64,000 bases of DNA from an uncultured Acidobacteriota bacterium (lineage in GTDB: Bacteria; Acidobacteriota; Thermoanaerobaculia; UBA5066; Gp7-AA6), in the NCBI GenBank assembly GCA_963733955.1, contig CAVTEW010000003.1, positions 1,308,322 to 1,372,321 on the forward strand, written 5' to 3'. Below, in pieces: positions 3,054 through 54,757 of this stretch. The translations under genes and the position numbers were made by a program. The notes beneath the pieces are model-generated. The model made no database searches. It saw only the letters and a program-made list of their open reading frames with translations, and was not told the origin of the DNA. Each line of letters opens with the position of its first letter. Within the stretch, counting starts at the first letter, position 1.

Positions 3054-3140
3054 GGGGAGGCATTATTCACGAAGGCGCCGAGAACCGACAGGCAGGCCGC
3101 GTGAGGCGTAAGGCGTGAGGCGTGAGGCGGGACGTGGCCC

Positions 3141-3201
3141 GGTCGCGGCGCGCGTAGTCTCCTGAGCGGAAGCGAAGGAGGAGGCGCGCGCCGCGGGAGC
3201 C
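3141..3201. repeat. ~60-bp dispersed repeat, identical copy at 60351..60412, with an internal 10-bp GC stem (GCGGCGCGCG...CGCGCGCCGC)
   Basis: GGT(C)GCGGCGCGCGTAGTCTCCTGAGCGGAAGCGAAGGAGGAGGCGCGCGCCGCGGGAGCC is present at both loci, each next to GGCGTGA heptamer arrays. Confidence 0.85.
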
Positions 3202-6244: not shown

Positions 6245-6250
6245 TTGAAT

Positions 6251-6327
6251 GAGGCGAGAGGCGTAAGGCGCAGCTCAACGCTCCCGGCTCCCGTTCGCCT
6301 CACGCCTGACGCCTTACGCCTAACGCC
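6251..6327. repeat. GGCGTRA heptamer arrays in inverted orientation (hairpin-forming) between hsp20 and nrdR
   Basis: GAGGCGAGAGGCGTAAGGCG ... CGCCTCACGCCTGACGCCTTACGCCTAACGCC. Confidence 0.8.
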
Positions 6328-6332
6328 CTGTG

Positions 6333-6803: not shown

Positions 6804-6886
6804 GGGCGTAAGGCGTGAGGCGTAAAGCGTAAGGCGATGGCGACGGCGACGGGGCGTGAGGCGTGAGGCGTGAAGCGTAAGGCGAA
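6804..6886. repeat. tandem GGCGTRA heptamer array upstream of nrdR
   Basis: GGCGTAAGGCGTGAGGCGTAAAGCGTAAGGCG...GGCGTGAGGCGTGAGGCGTGAAGCGTAAGGCG. Confidence 0.8.
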
Positions 6887-14675: not shown

Positions 14676-14739
14676 GACACGCTACGGTCCGAGTCGAGGG
14701 TCCGAGTCGAAGGGTCCGGGGTCGAAGGGACCTCGGACT

Positions 14740-15264
14740 TCAGGACCTCGGACTTCGGCTCCTCTCGTTGCGTTCCAGCACCATCTCGATGAATTCCCTG
14801 GCGGCTCCGCCGCCGCCGCACCGCTCGAGCACGCAGTCGGCCGCGGCCAGCGCCGCCGGCGTGGAGTCGGCCGGGCAGGCGGAGAAGCCGGCGGCTTCCA
14901 GCAGCGCAACGTCCGGCTCGTCGTCGCCGATGGCCGCCGTCTCCGACGGGTCGACCTTCCAGCGGCGGCACAGCGCTTCGTAGCGGACCAGCTTGTCCCG
15001 GATGCCCTGGAGGCAGACGTGCACGCCGAGGTCCCGCGCCCGGGCGTCCGTCGCCGGCGAGGTGCGTCCGGAGATCCAGGCCACCTTGAGCCCGCGCGCG
15101 ATCGCCTTGCGCATCCCGTGGCCGTCCTTGGTGTCGAAGACCTTGAACTCCTGGCCGTCTCCGGCGAGGTAGATCCGCCCGTCGGTCAGGACGCCGTCGA
15201 CGTCGAAGAACAAGGCCCGGATGATTTGCGATTTGCGATTTGTGATTTGTGATTTCGGCTTCAT
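14740..15264 (-). CDS. kdsC: 3-deoxy-D-manno-octulosonate 8-phosphate phosphatase (HAD family)
   Basis: FFDVDGVLTDGRIY HAD motif I. ATG at MKPKSQ; the N-terminus is encoded by heptamer repeats. Confidence 0.8.
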   Translation of the reverse strand: MKPKSQITNRKSQIIRALFFDVDGVLTDGRIYLAGDGQEFKVFDTKDGHGMRKAIARGLKVAWISGRTSPATDARARDLGVHVCLQGIRDKLVRYEALCRRWKVDPSETAAIGDDEPDVALLEAAGFSACPADSTPAALAAADCVLERCGGGGAAREFIEMVLERNERSRSPRS

Positions 15265-15306
15265 TGGAACCTCAAGTCGCAAATCTCAAATCTCGAATCA
15301 CAAATG
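15223..15306. repeat. tandem GATTTGY heptamers (encoding the kdsC N-terminus) plus an inverted GCAAATC/TCAAATC array immediately upstream
   Basis: GATTTGCGATTTGCGATTTGTGATTTGTGATTTCGGCTTCATTGGAACCTCAAGTCGCAAATCTCAAATCTCGAATCACAAATG. Confidence 0.85.
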
Positions 15307-15308
15307 CG

Positions 15309-16265
15309 TCAGCTGATTCCCGCCGAGAGCAGGTCGTGGAGATGGAGCGCGCCGACTAACCGCCCGCGGCCGTCCACCACGAAGAGCGACGTGATCTTGG
15401 CGTCTTCCATGGCCGCCAGCGCCGTGGAGGCGAAAGTCTCCGCGTCGGCGGTGCGGGGGTTCGCGTGCAGGCAATCCCCCGCGGACCGGGCCAGGAGGGC
15501 CACGTCGTTCTCGATCATCCGCCGCAGGTCCCCGTCGGAGATGACGCCCACGAGCTCCCCGGCCGGGCCGACCACCGCCGTGATGCCCATCATCTTGCGG
15601 GACATCTCGTGAATGGCCTCGGGCATGGGGGTTTCGCGCGAGACTTTCGGGACGCGCTCGCCCGTTCGCATCAGGTCCTTGACCTTGAGGAACCGCCGGC
15701 CGAGCTCCCCTCCCGGATGGAGGGCCGCGAAGTCCGCCTCTCCGAATCCCTTCCGTTCGGAGAGGACCATGGCCAGGGCGTCGCCCACGGCCAGCATGGC
15801 CGTCGTCGAGGCCGTCGGAGCCAGGTTGAGCGGGCAGGCCTCTCGGGAGATGGCGACGGAAAGGACGCGGTCCGCGGCGCGGGCCACCGAGGAGCCGGGC
15901 ACGCCGGTCATCGCGAGAGTGCGGATCCCGCGGCCGCGCGCGAATTCCAAGAGACGCACCACCTCGGCCGTCTCGCCGGAATAAGAGAGCGCCAGCACCG
16001 CGTCGCCTTCCATCAGCATCCCCAGGTCGCCGTGCGACGCTTCGGCCGCGTGCAGGTAGAAGGCCGGAGTTCCCGTCGAGGCGAGGGTGGCGGCGACCTT
16101 CTGGGCGATCAGTCCCGATTTGCCCAGGCCGGTGACGCACAGCCGGCCCCGGCAGGCGGCGATGTCTTCGACGGCCCCGGCGAACTCGGGGCCGAGGTTC
16201 CGGATCTGCTCCCGGATCGAGTCGGCCTCGATCTCCAGGACCTTGCGGGCCGTTTCGAGAATCAC
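15309..16265 (-). CDS. kdsD: arabinose-5-phosphate isomerase (SIS + CBS domains)
   Basis: SIS motif GLGKSGLIAQKVAATLASTGTPAFYLHAAEASHGDLG followed by tandem CBS domains. Confidence 0.9.
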   Translation of the reverse strand: MILETARKVLEIEADSIREQIRNLGPEFAGAVEDIAACRGRLCVTGLGKSGLIAQKVAATLASTGTPAFYLHAAEASHGDLGMLMEGDAVLALSYSGETAEVVRLLEFARGRGIRTLAMTGVPGSSVARAADRVLSVAISREACPLNLAPTASTTAMLAVGDALAMVLSERKGFGEADFAALHPGGELGRRFLKVKDLMRTGERVPKVSRETPMPEAIHEMSRKMMGITAVVGPAGELVGVISDGDLRRMIENDVALLARSAGDCLHANPRTADAETFASTALAAMEDAKITSLFVVDGRGRLVGALHLHDLLSAGIS

Positions 16266-19187: not shown

Positions 19188-19221
19188 CGACGAGGACGTA
19201 GGACGTAGGACTTAGGACGTA

Positions 19222-19250
19222 GGACGTCGGAGGGACCCACCCCGACGTCC
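19222..19250. terminator. hairpin between convergent genes (weak T-tract), possible bidirectional terminator
   Basis: GGACGTCGG-N11-CCGACGTCC, preceded by GACGTAG heptamer repeats. Confidence 0.4.
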
Positions 19251-19263
19251 TTCCACCTAAGTC

Positions 19264-20376
19264 CTATTTCAGAAGGATCTCCTCGAAGAACGCCAGCGCC
19301 CGCGGATCCCTGGACTGGCCGAGCCAGAACACGGCCTGCTTGCGCACGGCGGGGTTGCGGTTGGTGCGCGCGACGCGGATGAGCTGCGCAACGCCTTCGT
19401 CCCCGGGCAGCTGCGACAAGGCAAAGACGGCCTTCTTCTTGACCTCCGTCTCGGGGTCGTCGTGGATGGCGTCTTCGATGGCGCCGGCGGCTTTCTTCCC
19501 GGCTTTCTGCGCCAGCCAGAACAGGGCCTGACCCCGCACCTCCGCCGCGCGATCGTTCCGGGCCATTCCGATCAACGTGTCGAGGGCCTCCGGCTCCGGA
19601 CTCTGCGAGAGCGCGAACGTGACCTGCTTGCGGAACTCCTCCGAGGGATCGGATCGCGCCAGCCCGCGAAGAACCTCGAACCCGCGGCGGCCCCGGGCGT
19701 TTCCCAGCCAGAAGGCGGCCTGCCGCCGAACGGGCTCGGGGTTGGCCGCGGCGACGAGGCTCTCCAGGGCCACATCGGCCGAGGGATCGTCGTGGAACGC
19801 GATCGCCGAAAGGGCCGGCTCTCCGGAGCGCTTGGTCTTCTTCCGCGAGAGGTTGGGATCGTCGACGAGCGTCTTGAGGAAGGCGACGCTCTCGGGCGCA
19901 GCCACGCCGGTCAGCCACACGACGGCGCTCCCTCCGGCGTCGATGGAGCAATTCCCGGAAAACGTCCGCAGCGTCCGCGGCGCCCCGTCCTCGAACCGCA
20001 CGAAGACGAGGAGCCGGTCCGCTCCGTTCAGTTGCGCGCAGTCGCCGGAGTCGGAGTCGAAGAATCCGGAGTAGCGATGCGCGTCGTCGAGGAAACACCG
20101 TCCTCCGCAGGGGGAGCGGTCCACGTCGTCCATCGTGTCGAAGCAGCAGATCGAACGCTGTCCCGCCATCGGCTCCTCCCAGGCGATCCACGGCGGACCG
20201 CCGGGGGAGCCGGAGGACAATCTCTGTATTGTGTCCTGGAGTCCGCCCGACAGGGGAGCGGTCTGGAACCGCGCGTGGGAGATCCGCACGGTCTGGCCGG
20301 ACGCGGCCCCCGCCGCCAGCGCGAGCGCTCCTGCAAGGATCGCAGCGCGAGCTCTCATCGTTCCCTCACTCGTCAC
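19264..20376 (-). CDS. secreted HEAT-repeat (PBS-lyase-like) protein
   Basis: Signal peptide. Repeated VRRQAAFWLG / VRGQALFWLA / VRKQAVFWLG HEAT units. Confidence 0.7.
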   Translation of the reverse strand: MTSEGTMRARAAILAGALALAAGAASGQTVRISHARFQTAPLSGGLQDTIQRLSSGSPGGPPWIAWEEPMAGQRSICCFDTMDDVDRSPCGGRCFLDDAHRYSGFFDSDSGDCAQLNGADRLLVFVRFEDGAPRTLRTFSGNCSIDAGGSAVVWLTGVAAPESVAFLKTLVDDPNLSRKKTKRSGEPALSAIAFHDDPSADVALESLVAAANPEPVRRQAAFWLGNARGRRGFEVLRGLARSDPSEEFRKQVTFALSQSPEPEALDTLIGMARNDRAAEVRGQALFWLAQKAGKKAAGAIEDAIHDDPETEVKKKAVFALSQLPGDEGVAQLIRVARTNRNPAVRKQAVFWLGQSRDPRALAFFEEILLK

Positions 20377-20379
20377 TTC

Positions 20380-21351
20380 TCACTCGTCATCCTCGGCGTC
20401 CCCGCGGCTCTTGACCGAGACCGGGCCGTTGACGGTGGACAGGCGGACCAGGGTCTCGCCGGACCCGAACTCGACCCTTCGGAAATCGTCGTCCCAGGAC
20501 TTGCGGCCGCCGGAGCACGCCGGCGCGCGGCAGGTAAACGGGGAGTGCCCGGCCGACTCGATCCGGGTGCCGGTGCGGTAGTTCTCCGGGATGCGGACCG
20601 ACAGGGGGCCGTTGTCGGCGTGCGCCTCCAGGCGGCGTCCCTCCCAATGGTCTCCCGTGAGGTTGACGGAGATCGGACCGTTGCGCGTCTGCAGGTTCTG
20701 GTCGCCGCCGCCCCCGCGCAGGCTGATCGGCCCGTTGGTCGCCTCGGCCTCGACGGAGCCCCGGCAGTTGGCGATGGAGATCGGCCCGTTCTCGGCGTGG
20801 GCCCGAACCGAGCCGGAGAGATCCAGAAGCGACAGCGGCCCGTTGGTCGTCCTGGCGGCCACCGAACCGGAGAGTTCCCGGACCGAGAGGGGACCGTTGG
20901 ACGCTTCGAGATCGACCGCGGAGCCCCGGGGCGTCTGGACGAGAAGGAAGACGAGCCATTCGCCGTTGGACGGTCCGGAAACGGAGAGACGTCCGTCTCT
21001 GCCCAGGCTGGCGGCGATCCCGGAAAGATCCTCGGAGCGCAAGGCCGCCTTGCAGACCTTGACCGACGTGTCCGAACCGTCGCCCCCTCGGACGTAGGCC
21101 CCCGACGACTCCGGAACGCGGATCGTCAGGACCGCCGCCGAGAGCCGCGCGGTCACGACGTCCTCGGCGCGGGCCGCGTCCCGTTCGTCGAACCGGACCC
21201 GGATCTGCGAGCAACTCGTGATCGCGTCTTCTCCGTCCGTCGTCACGTTGACGTTGTGCCCGCCGTGCCGGTGCCGGGACTCTCCGTCAAGGCGTCCCGG
21301 GACCGTCATTGCCAGAAAGATCGCCCCGATCAGGAATACTCTGCGTTTCAT
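20380..21351 (-). CDS. DUF4097-like beta-helical protein (putative adhesin / LiaG-like)
   Basis: AGGAG RBS before ATG 21351. Signal peptide. Repeated NGP(I/L)S(V/L) rungs. Confidence 0.75.
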   Translation of the reverse strand: MKRRVFLIGAIFLAMTVPGRLDGESRHRHGGHNVNVTTDGEDAITSCSQIRVRFDERDAARAEDVVTARLSAAVLTIRVPESSGAYVRGGDGSDTSVKVCKAALRSEDLSGIAASLGRDGRLSVSGPSNGEWLVFLLVQTPRGSAVDLEASNGPLSVRELSGSVAARTTNGPLSLLDLSGSVRAHAENGPISIANCRGSVEAEATNGPISLRGGGGDQNLQTRNGPISVNLTGDHWEGRRLEAHADNGPLSVRIPENYRTGTRIESAGHSPFTCRAPACSGGRKSWDDDFRRVEFGSGETLVRLSTVNGPVSVKSRGDAEDDE

Positions 21352-21392
21352 CGGATTCTCCTTCGCCTCACGCCTCACGCCTCACGCCTCAC

Positions 21393-52314: not shown

Positions 52315-54757
<2,443 letters not shown>

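Follow-up and report, generated by a model that had tools for sequence, protein, structure and literature searches.

Anatomy of the kdsD-kdsC junction

In this study, we analyzed a 64-kb stretch of DNA from an uncultured bacterium of the Thermoanaerobaculia (hereafter, the window), and in particular a hairpin made of two inverted heptamer arrays that lies between kdsD and kdsC and reaches into the first codons of kdsC. We found that this hairpin is one of many period-7 arrays that occupy short gene junctions across this soil lineage of Acidobacteriota. Related loci are designated by L numbers. The features of the junction, in gene-strand order, are the following:

15309..16265, minus strand: kdsD, encoding an arabinose-5-phosphate isomerase of the KpsF/GutQ family (TIGR00393, 297.9 bits, cutoff 203.7)
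15267..15305, minus strand: 5' arm of the hairpin, five imperfect heptamers reading TTTGTGA TTCGAGA TTTGAGA TTTGCGA CTTGAGG on the gene strand (inverted-repeat search)
15270..15273, minus strand: putative Shine-Dalgarno (SD) sequence GAGG, 5 nt upstream of the ATG and at the hairpin tip (anti-SD duplex of -6.8 kcal/mol)
15262..15264, minus strand: credible kdsC start codon ATG, in the predicted apical loop, conserved in L027, in L068 and in the P0001 protein cluster
15223..15255, minus strand: 3' arm of the hairpin, reading AAATCAC AAATCAC AAATCGC AAATCGC AAATC on the gene strand (Tandem Repeats Finder)
14740..15264, minus strand: kdsC, encoding a 3-deoxy-D-manno-octulosonate 8-phosphate (Kdo-8-P) phosphatase of the KdsC/YrbI family (TIGR01670, 135.7 bits, cutoff 107)

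The kdsD stop codon, TGA at 15311-15309, is separated from the kdsC ATG by a spacer of 44 nt, and the 5' foot of the hairpin begins 3-4 nt downstream of this stop. On the gene strand the junction reads TGA-cgca, 5' arm, ttcca-ATG-aagccg, 3' arm and ATC CGG GCC (IRA...). Tandem Repeats Finder assigns a period of 7 to both arrays, with 5.0 copies and 78% matches at 15271-15305 and 4.7 copies and 96% matches at 15223-15255. The unit of the 3' array is GATTTGC on the plus strand, that is, AAATCRC on the gene strand, and at most two consecutive units are identical (AAATCAC twice, then AAATCGC twice). In the inverted-repeat search, the arms at 15224-15262 and 15267-15305 are 39 nt long, 77% complementary and 4 nt apart. 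The GAGG motif is supplied by the last, degenerate unit of the 5' arm. Within the window, the AAATCRC unit is unique to the kdsC locus, with AAATCRCAAATCRC confined to it (4 overlapping matches versus 0.02 expected), and the other arrays use other units.

These data confirm, in its essentials, the observation made in a first-pass annotation of this DNA. The inverted array described there in the kdsC leader is present at 15271-15305, and the proposed hairpin of more than 20 bp spanning the start codon is predicted by RNA folding as an imperfect stem-loop of about 34 bp. On the other hand, the statement that five AAATCRC heptamers make up the first 12 codons is right in placing an array in the early codons and needs correction in its extent, which is 11 codons (codons 4-14) and 4.7 copies.

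The 3' arm encodes KdsC residues 4-14, KSQITNRKSQI, of a predicted N-terminus that reads MKPKSQITNRKSQI. The conserved core of the protein starts at residue 15 (IRALFFDVDG). As the match to the TIGR01670 profile begins at this same residue, the repeat-encoded residues lie outside the conserved fold. Solved KdsC structures (PDB) align from residues 4-15 onward, varying by structure, and most of these alignments leave out the repeat-encoded extension. We consider the ATG at 15264 a credible start because it has an SD sequence at 5-nt spacing and is conserved in the closest relatives, and because the sole downstream alternative, the TTG of LFF, would delete the beta-strand preceding the catalytic DxD motif. 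An upstream in-frame TTG at 15282 is not conserved, and in L027 it is followed by an in-frame TGA. No exact match to the 174-aa KdsC was found in public assemblies; an identical KdsD is encoded on two short contigs (L001 and L002).

Accessibility of the kdsC ribosome-binding site

The predicted hairpin of the window consists of 6-bp segments with a 1-nt mismatch about every 7 nt, and has a folding energy of -28.8 to -32.8 kcal/mol. Its z score against dinucleotide shuffles is weak (-1.4 to -1.6) because shuffled low-complexity sequence folds too. The first-pass annotation proposed that such a hairpin would occlude translation initiation. The folding does not bear this out, since the ATG is left unpaired in the apical loop (unpaired probabilities of 1.0, 1.0 and 0.3 for its three bases) and the energy needed to open the region from -18 to +12, 14.2 kcal/mol, is ordinary, the median of 32 crudely placed gene starts in the window being 14.9. 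Pairing of the SD sequence is limited to its GG, within a weak 4-bp helix at the tip. Thus, the arrangement expected of an operator that sequesters the ribosome-binding site (RBS), with SD sequence or start codon paired in the stem, is not found at kdsC. In many orthologues the entire hairpin lies upstream of the ATG, and in two relatives (L009 and L069) there is none. Altogether, the model indicates that the hairpin probably frames the kdsC RBS rather than burying it.

No sigma-70-like promoter was detected at the junction in a promoter scan. Likewise, a scan for intrinsic terminators found none there; the stem is A+U-rich and is followed by CCGGGCC, with no U-tract after a G+C-rich stem. A search of the whole window against Rfam 15 gave no match at the gathering threshold, the hairpin yielding sub-threshold look-alikes of miRNA precursors.

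Orthologous kdsD-kdsC junctions

We retrieved 61 related loci and compared the sequences that separate the kdsD stop from the IRALFF codons. The KdsC homologues are proteins from metagenome-assembled genomes (MAGs) of Thermoanaerobaculia and Acidobacteriota. Orthologous N-termini had been suggested in the first-pass annotation as a point of comparison, and they are of two kinds, one with repeat-looking extensions and the other reading plain MI(R/K)ALFFDVDG. The extensions include MKPQSQITNRKSQII, ..NHKSQITNRKSP.. and a large group of the form MKRxxIRQSxNRQSSII, which keeps a constant 22 residues ahead of the DVDG motif across diverged sequences.

About 25 loci of one clade have a junction of 76-113 nt that folds into a hairpin of 22-47 bp, with z scores mostly between -2 and -5.7. 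Their KdsC cores are 77-88% identical. The hairpins are built from at least seven unit families, given below as 5' unit and 3' unit:

TGATTTG and CAAATCR: window, L003, L027, L028, L031, L045
GGGTGATC and GATCACCC: L004, L008, L035, L043
TAGGTGG and CCACCTA: L005, L032
TGACGAT and CAATCGT: L007, L030, L033, L036
GTGAATT and AYTCACA: L010, L011
GGCGAAA and TTCGCCA: L029
GCGGAGG-type: L034

In a cross-duplex matrix, own-arm and same-family duplexes have energies of -41 to -43 kcal/mol versus -25 between families. Each 5' arm pairs well solely with 3' arms of its own family, that is, both arms change together. On a tree of KdsD and KdsC, the hairpin loci form one clade, except for L045, which falls among the outgroup; L009, with a 15-nt junction and no hairpin, is nested inside the clade. 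Distant Thermoanaerobaculia have junctions of 17-50 nt with a TTG start overlapping the kdsD stop (GCTTGA), and four of them (L018, L020, L057 and L062) carry a one-armed CGTCTCA array inside the first codons. Comparison of these junctions shows an element that is evidently old in position and fluid in sequence and size.

In the TAGGTGG family (L005, L032 and L072), each unit combines the stop triplet TAG with an SD-like AGGTGG and with a GTG. In this family, the open reading frame (ORF) appears to begin at the GTG in the last 5'-arm units, with the loop and the whole 3' arm translated (VLGGRGKPRSLSPTSYHLPPIRALFF-type N-termini).

A hairpin that keeps its position in about 25 genomes, with arms that co-vary over at least seven unit families, speaks for a selected cis-acting RNA element. 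Such an element could act through termination-initiation coupling or a split RBS, through protection of kdsD mRNA from 3' exonucleases, or as an RNase III site setting the KdsD:KdsC ratio. We regard this explanation as unlikely, though it has the most to be said for it among the alternatives to be weighed. Against it stand the weak z score and average RBS opening cost of the window hairpin, as well as the lack of any conserved loop or unit sequence.

Turnover among close relatives

The nearest relatives of the window share 82-84% nucleotide identity in kdsC and are therefore different species, not strains. Their junctions differ in distinct ways. L027 (83% nucleotide identity) has a hairpin of the same length as the window, with substitutions only. 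In L068 each of the two arms is shorter by exactly 21 nt, or three units, and the reading frame is preserved (MRPKSQVIRALFF). In L070 the hairpin is made from a different unit. Finally, L069 reads TGA-cgc-ATG-ATC-CGG (TGAcgcATGatc) and has no hairpin at this junction, while the 3' hairpin that it shares with L027 and L070 is kept. At the strain level, the two independent contigs that encode the same KdsD show no difference from the window over 84 nt (L001) and 20 nt (L002) of the junction.

Within protein clusters of 90% identity, KdsC N-termini range from MIRALFF to extensions of 20-30 residues. Given these variable N-termini and the empty and altered sites, the element is dispensable and fast-evolving relative to the protein. 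The absence of the hairpin from L009 and L069, in which the operon is otherwise intact, counts against a selected RNA element, whereas the symmetric 21-nt difference between the arms of L068 and the window counts for it.

L009 and L069 are near-precise empty sites with respect to their sisters L007 and the window, respectively. L069 has TGAcgcATGatccgg in place of the 86 nt present in the window. Within the start region ATGATCA lies the 6-bp palindrome TGATCA, and a TGAT/ATCA core is common to most unit families. This suggests that the hairpin may have grown outward from a small palindrome at the stop/start junction. We also considered a MITE-like insertion (miniature inverted-repeat transposable element) with target-site duplication, which received no clear support: the difference between the empty site of L069 and the filled site of the window is a single extra G, and apart from the arrays themselves no terminal repeats are convincing.

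The first-pass annotation further proposed that KdsC expression is switchable, one means being slippage of the array. In such a contingency locus, slipped-strand mispairing in codons 4-14 would shift the kdsC frame or the hairpin strength and would make Kdo and lipopolysaccharide (LPS) synthesis phase-variable. It is arithmetically true that a 7-bp slip would shift the kdsC frame, since 7 is not divisible by 3 and the array is located in 5' coding sequence. Moreover, L068 attests to evolutionary change of the copy number, neuO provides a proven switch based on a heptamer tract at this position of a gene, and kdsC is dispensable in E. coli. Nevertheless, we consider this explanation very improbable. 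The tract comprises 4.7 imperfect copies, of which no more than two consecutive ones are the same. Neither L001 nor L002 differs from the window over the junction sequence compared, and L027 is of equal length. The sole length variant seen is in frame, with three units missing from each arm. No out-of-frame allele was seen among about 14 related junctions that lack a proximal ATG, and in many orthologues the tract lies outside the ORF. Comparable arrays occupy many housekeeping junctions. Finally, the neuO tracts comprise 3-53 perfect copies and are OFF in 66% of genomes. Hypervariability at the strain level was not seen in the two same-strain contigs. Hence, an on/off switch of KdsC by phase variation is not supported.

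Translation of the arms and gene termini

At the position of the Met of MIRALFF, the window, L027, L030, L033, L036 and others have an ATC codon, and their sole start is the loop ATG. All of the approximately 14 junctions without a proximal ATG have an in-frame upstream start and an open 3' arm. Since the frame is open through the 3' arm in all of them, the arm is read as protein. G+C at third codon positions (GC3) is 0.50 over the 14-codon extension from the ATG to I14 versus 0.95 in the rest of kdsC. Judging from this composition, the 3' arm is not shaped like coding sequence, despite being read.

Public kdsC calls often start at the TTG of LFF or at a GTG or ATG inside DVDG, as in L005 (P0081), L072 (P0076) and L073 (P0178), and the proteins P0091, P0092, P0096, P0105 and P0115 are likewise called from LFF or DVDG-internal starts. 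We considered whether such truncated calls (LFF..., VDGVLTDG...) are frameshifted OFF alleles and rejected this idea, as the DNA of L072 and L073 has intact in-frame upstream ORFs and the calls are gene-caller artefacts. The repeat hairpin probably confuses start prediction; the DNA shows intact longer ORFs. For annotation, this means that gene callers are inconsistent on kdsC starts, some of which are placed inside the catalytic DVDG motif.

The 3' end of kdsC has a heptamer hairpin of its own:

14686..14764, minus strand: kdsC 3'-end hairpin, two copies of AGTCCGAGGTCCTGA facing a CGACTCGGACC-type array (-42.9 kcal/mol)

In the window, the kdsC stop codon (14742-14740) lies inside the first arm of this hairpin, and the last codons are repeat-encoded. 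Hairpins of this kind occur at the 3' end of kdsC in the hairpin clade with differing units, such as GGTCTAA and TTAGACC, GGTTTCA and TGAAACC, GGGTCCA and TGGACYC, or GGCGTAA and CGCCTCA. The kdsC stop falls in the first arm in the window, L003, L004, L005, L027, L030, L034, L036 and L040, which results in highly variable C-terminal tails: the last 3-10 KdsC residues are repeat-encoded and differ between close relatives (..RSKV*, ..SPRS*, ..QGPK*).

Placement of the Shine-Dalgarno sequence and start codon

The orthologous hairpins differ in whether the kdsC ATG lies immediately 3' of the stem (foot-ATG loci) or in the loop (loop-ATG loci). None of the nine foot-ATG loci has an SD sequence in the linear region from -18 to -3 (duplex energy of 0 or above). 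Seven of these nine have an anti-SD duplex of -5.8 kcal/mol or stronger in the first 14 nt past the kdsD stop, and six have, by eye, a canonical SD sequence (AAGGA, GAGGA or AAGGAG) in the 6-8 nt that separate the stop from the stem and stay unpaired. All five clear loop-ATG loci (window, L027, L030, L033 and L036) lack an SD sequence at the foot and have an SD-like element in the loop; that of the window and of L030 is strong, whereas L027, L033 and L036 have a weak one. This pattern suggests that SD sequence and start codon share one compartment, both in the loop or both at the foot, and that the stem may form on the mRNA with the RBS arranged around it.

This geometry, with the kdsD stop at the 5' foot and most foot-ATG loci holding a canonical SD sequence just 5' of the stem in place of a linear one, is further support for a selected RNA element. 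In contrast, the base pairs of the arms argue against it. Summed over the arm pairs, the comparison of the 5' arm with the reverse complement of the 3' arm gave 533 Watson-Crick pairs, 26 G.U, 29 A.C and 56 other mismatches. There is no bias toward wobble pairs on the sense strand (26 G.U versus 29 A.C) and, therefore, the pattern classically expected when an RNA helix is under selection is missing. This result points to a DNA-level process as a likelier cause than RNA-level selection. On the other hand, some differences are homogenised in a single arm; in L029, for example, all units have an A.A mismatch. Hence, the arms evolve partly independently, yet they remain about 83-90% complementary, which again favors a selected RNA element. 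Together with the symmetric change in L068, arm-specific homogenisation may fit either selection for pairing or intra-strand template switching. Template switching within a strand at quasi-palindromes is a known mutational mechanism.

We also considered left-arm units (GGTGATC and others) as mimics of an extended SD sequence, with right arms resembling the 16S rRNA 3' end. The diversity of units and the mixed orientation of the arrays argue against such a general rule.

Period-7 arrays across the window

A scan of the window found seven arrays of period 7 with a self-match score of at least 14, none of any other period between 4 and 13, and none in Markov-2 simulations. When weaker ones are included, there are at least 10 heptamer arrays, whose units vary by site:

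6245..6332, minus strand: stop TGA, GGCGTNA x4.5, 25-nt loop, CGCCTNA x3 and ttcaaATG, with the stop-stem-ATG geometry seen at kdsC (-48.4 kcal/mol, z -3.1)
6805..6884, no strand assigned: one-armed GGCGTRA x11.6 filling the next gene junction (Tandem Repeats Finder, gene map)
21364..21392, minus strand: one-armed array filling a junction exactly, stop TGA, GTGAGGCG x4 and aaggagaatccgATG, with SD sequence and ATG (Tandem Repeats Finder, gene map)
19189..19263, no strand assigned: GGACGTA x6 with a partial inverted copy, between convergent genes (-44.1 kcal/mol, z -5.1)
60266..60312, no strand assigned: perfect GGCGTGA x6.7 in a gene junction (Tandem Repeats Finder, period scan)
3099-3129, 20364-20394, 52316-52360 and 60516-60536: further heptamer arrays (Tandem Repeats Finder)

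On a crude, GC3-based gene map, every array is found in a short gene junction or extends into first or last codons. Most are flanked by co-directional genes, and two (14686-14764 and 19189-19263) are placed between convergent genes. Arrays like that of kdsC occur at many housekeeping junctions, with no uniform orientation toward the downstream gene. The related loci show the same preference, with 22 arrays of period 7, 4 of period 8 and none of other periods. Per 10 kb, loci of the hairpin clade have 1.8 arrays and those of the outgroup Thermoanaerobaculia 0.3, and loci from other phyla have none. The 26 arrays in the survey of related loci comprise at least 15 different canonical units. An inverted partner lies within 70 nt of 31 of the 45 period-7 arrays of the window and the Thermoanaerobaculia loci, a sample biased by its kdsC-centred design. 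The one-armed arrays at many other junctions, in mixed orientation to the downstream gene, again speak against a selected RNA element at kdsC, although its stop-hairpin-ATG geometry does recur at 6245-6332. A fixed hairpin polarity, with the stop-containing arm first, was considered as well and is contradicted by L003 2843-2949.

On one strand, most units of the window arrays at 3099, 6296, 6805, 19189, 20364, 21364 and 60266 and of the related loci combine a stop triplet with an SD-like core (TGAGGCG, TAAGGCG, TAGGACG, TAAGGTC, TAGGTGG and GTGATTT), and about 10 of the 15 canonical units in the survey of related loci contain a stop triplet, as counted by eye. As 7 is not a multiple of 3, a stop-bearing array offers a stop to each of the three frames within 7 codons. 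Stop-SD junction sequence might have seeded the arrays, or they might be all-frame translation insulators.

The strict 7-nt periodicity and the position of arrays next to start or stop codons are also what leads one to think of binding sites for a protein or ribonucleoprotein with a 7-nt register, as has been proposed for the TAACTGA repeats of Beggiatoaceae, the hairpin being incidental or modulating access. There is a parallel in the arrays of Beggiatoaceae that overlap ribosome-binding sites, and many units pair a stop triplet with an AGG or GAGG core (TGAGGCG, TAAGGCG, TAGGACG, TAAGGTC and TAGGTGG). However, the 15 or more canonical units among 26 arrays and the complete turnover of the unit between genomes at one locus make a sequence-specific binder hard to reconcile with the data. 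The orientation to the downstream gene is mixed, and no candidate protein was found. We therefore hold binding arrays to be quite improbable.

Several further observations were made in the window and related loci. The longest array among related loci is one-armed, TGACGAG x~9 at L003 1658-1723, with a self-match score of 55. A stretch of about 62 nt, TCGCGGCGCGCGTAGTCTCCTGAGCGGAAGCGAAGGAGGAGGCGCGCGCCGCGGGAGCCG, occurs twice without mismatch, at 3136-3200 and 60347-60411 of the window. It includes a 44-nt element closed by a GCGCGCG/CGCGCGC stem, and both copies follow, at a distance of a few tens of nt, a GGCGTGA array located in a gene junction. This stretch may be an element of the REP (repetitive extragenic palindromic) or MITE type, or a small RNA; it has no Rfam match. 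The plus strand holds a 2945-aa ORF at 34411-43248 with atypical G+C by codon position (GC1 0.56, GC2 0.56, GC3 0.82), and no gene passes the GC3 filter between 26 and 34 kb.

Discussion

With slightly better than even confidence, we propose that the element between kdsD and kdsC is a dispensable, fast-evolving palindrome of heptamer microsatellites, whose loop holds the RBS, whose 3' arm is translated as a throwaway tail and whose effect is at most a modest tuning or coupling. The arrays would arise and homogenise by replication slippage, and the complementarity of the arms would be kept by intra-strand template switching at a quasi-palindrome, by selection for a compact fold, or by both. The presumed ancestral proximal start, which relatives show as ATG-ATC-CGG, reads ATC in this genome. 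Translation would begin at the apical-loop ATG, with GAGG of the last degenerate unit as SD sequence, and the ribosome would read through the 3' arm, adding a dispensable 11-residue tail outside the KdsC fold. The stem-loop would be tolerated on the mRNA because SD sequence and start codon stay in one compartment, the loop here and the stem foot elsewhere. Moreover, as the kdsD stop is 3-4 nt from the stem, the lower part of the stem would be melted by a ribosome that terminates there, so that the element could at most tune kdsC translation or couple it to that of kdsD, and would not act as an on/off switch.

Several points weigh against this proposal. Retention of the junction hairpin at 77-88% KdsC core identity, with arms about 83-90% complementary, could equally mean selection for an RNA function. 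The rule that SD sequence and ATG share a compartment is drawn from few phylogenetically independent groups, and the loop SD sequence is weak in three of five loci. Relatives with different hairpin states are separated at the species level, which limits what can be said of the mutation rate of the tract, and the strain-level comparison consists of two same-strain contigs (L001 and L002). In addition, MAG and metagenome assemblies could mis-assemble repeats, and the background for the RBS opening cost is made of crude longest-ORF starts (n=32) in a G+C-rich window.

An excess of heptamer simple sequence repeats (SSRs) in bacterial intergenic DNA has been described (Mrazek et al. 2007, as cited in PMC4692102). 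The GGGAATC repeats of Xanthomonas and the GGGGAYT repeats of Nostoc lie between the same genes in related species, vary extensively in length and sequence, and sometimes form inverted pairs (PMC4692102). Their function is unexplained, and a bias of polymerase slippage has been proposed (PMC4692102). Geobacter also has several families of heptamer-repeat elements (PMC2700814). The arrays of the window and related loci share with the intergenic heptanucleotide class of Xanthomonas, Nostoc and the Calothrix STRR (Mrazek 2007; Rehm 2015) all four of its traits: head-to-tail arrays of period 7, enrichment of this period, a bias to junctions near starts and stops, and positional conservation with turnover. 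Some inverted pairs able to form stem-loops are a further likeness. Unlike that class, the arrays studied here have no genome-wide consensus unit (at least 15 units) and their units are not G-quadruplex-prone; most kdsC arrays are paired into long hairpins with co-varying arms; and these arms reach into coding sequence, where they supply start, stop and terminal codons.

In marine Beggiatoaceae, TAACTGA direct repeats lie just upstream of start codons and replace a canonical RBS (MacGregor 2015, PMC4679880). As in our lineage, these heptamers are found a few nt upstream of starts, overlap an often non-canonical RBS, occur sometimes inside ORFs, and hold stop triplets in the unit. However, Beggiatoaceae use one fixed unit, mostly in the forward direction, with one indirect repeat among 170 sets, whereas many units and frequent inverted pairs are seen here.

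The closest parallels for a regulatory tract are neuO of the E. coli K1 prophage CUS-3, with a heptanucleotide tract in the 5' coding region that encodes an N-terminal 7-residue peptide repeat, and the 7-nt promoter SSR of H. influenzae hmw, a heptamer SSR that tunes expression. For the proposed slippage switch, neuO is an exact precedent: AAGACTC repeats in its 5' coding sequence are ON only if the copy number is divisible by 3, the 3-53 copies are perfect, and 66% of genomes are OFF (PMC13001214). The tracts of neuO and hmw are long and perfect (3-53 and 13-38 copies), polymorphic both between and within strains, and often OFF, and they control genes of surface variation. In contrast, the kdsC tract is short and imperfect, belongs to a housekeeping gene and has an inverted partner array, and neither strain-level polymorphism nor OFF alleles were seen. 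Thus, kdsC shares with the neuO type a unit not divisible by 3 in the 5' coding sequence, and it lacks tract perfection, polymorphism with OFF alleles, and membership in a surface, host-interaction or restriction gene class.

The junction hairpins resemble the REP elements and bacterial interspersed mosaic elements (BIMEs) of enterobacteria, which are imperfect palindromes transcribed in operons between a stop and the next start. REP and BIME elements can stabilise upstream mRNA, and REPs share a genome-wide consensus and are mobilised by RAYT transposases. Here, by contrast, every hairpin has a 7-nt unit of its own that was amplified locally, and no shared consensus exists within the window. 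In the split RBS of phage T4 gene 38, a hairpin between SD sequence and AUG brings both into working distance. The foot-ATG orthologues resemble this arrangement; the inferred spacer of about 85-100 nt, however, is far longer than that of T4.

We found no relevant report on such repeats in Thermoanaerobaculia or Acidobacteriota. What appears to be new is the host lineage, the use of multiple units, the predominance of co-varying paired arrays at a fixed junction, the symmetric change of three units, and the capture of start and stop codons.

A bolder proposition, which we consider doubtful, is that heptamer-array hairpins form an actively maintained class at operon junctions of Thermoanaerobaculia. 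They would grow symmetrically by three units, act as modular translational couplers, with SD sequence and start both in the loop or both at the foot as a split RBS across a stem of 85-100 nt, and supply all-frame stops as well as ready-made start and stop codons. If this were true, gene termini would be unusually plastic in these bacteria, and a dedicated mechanism or strong RNA-level selection would stand behind the bacterial excess of heptamer repeats.

Seen as a dispensable microsatellite palindrome, the element is ordinary for kdsC itself, and an unsupported claim of phase-variable LPS core synthesis is removed for this gene. Its value lies in a clean comparative system for the heptamer-repeat phenomenon. 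The excess of 7-nt tandem repeats between bacterial genes, recognised in 2007, is still unexplained, and this lineage offers an unusually clean natural experiment. At one orthologous junction in dozens of genomes, the place, size and complementarity of a hairpin are kept while its unit turns over, and alleles with an empty site or half the size are available. This system makes testable whether RNA selection or DNA template switching is at work, how an RBS accommodates an insertion of about 90 nt, and how arrays drive the gain and loss of start codons, stop codons and protein tails.

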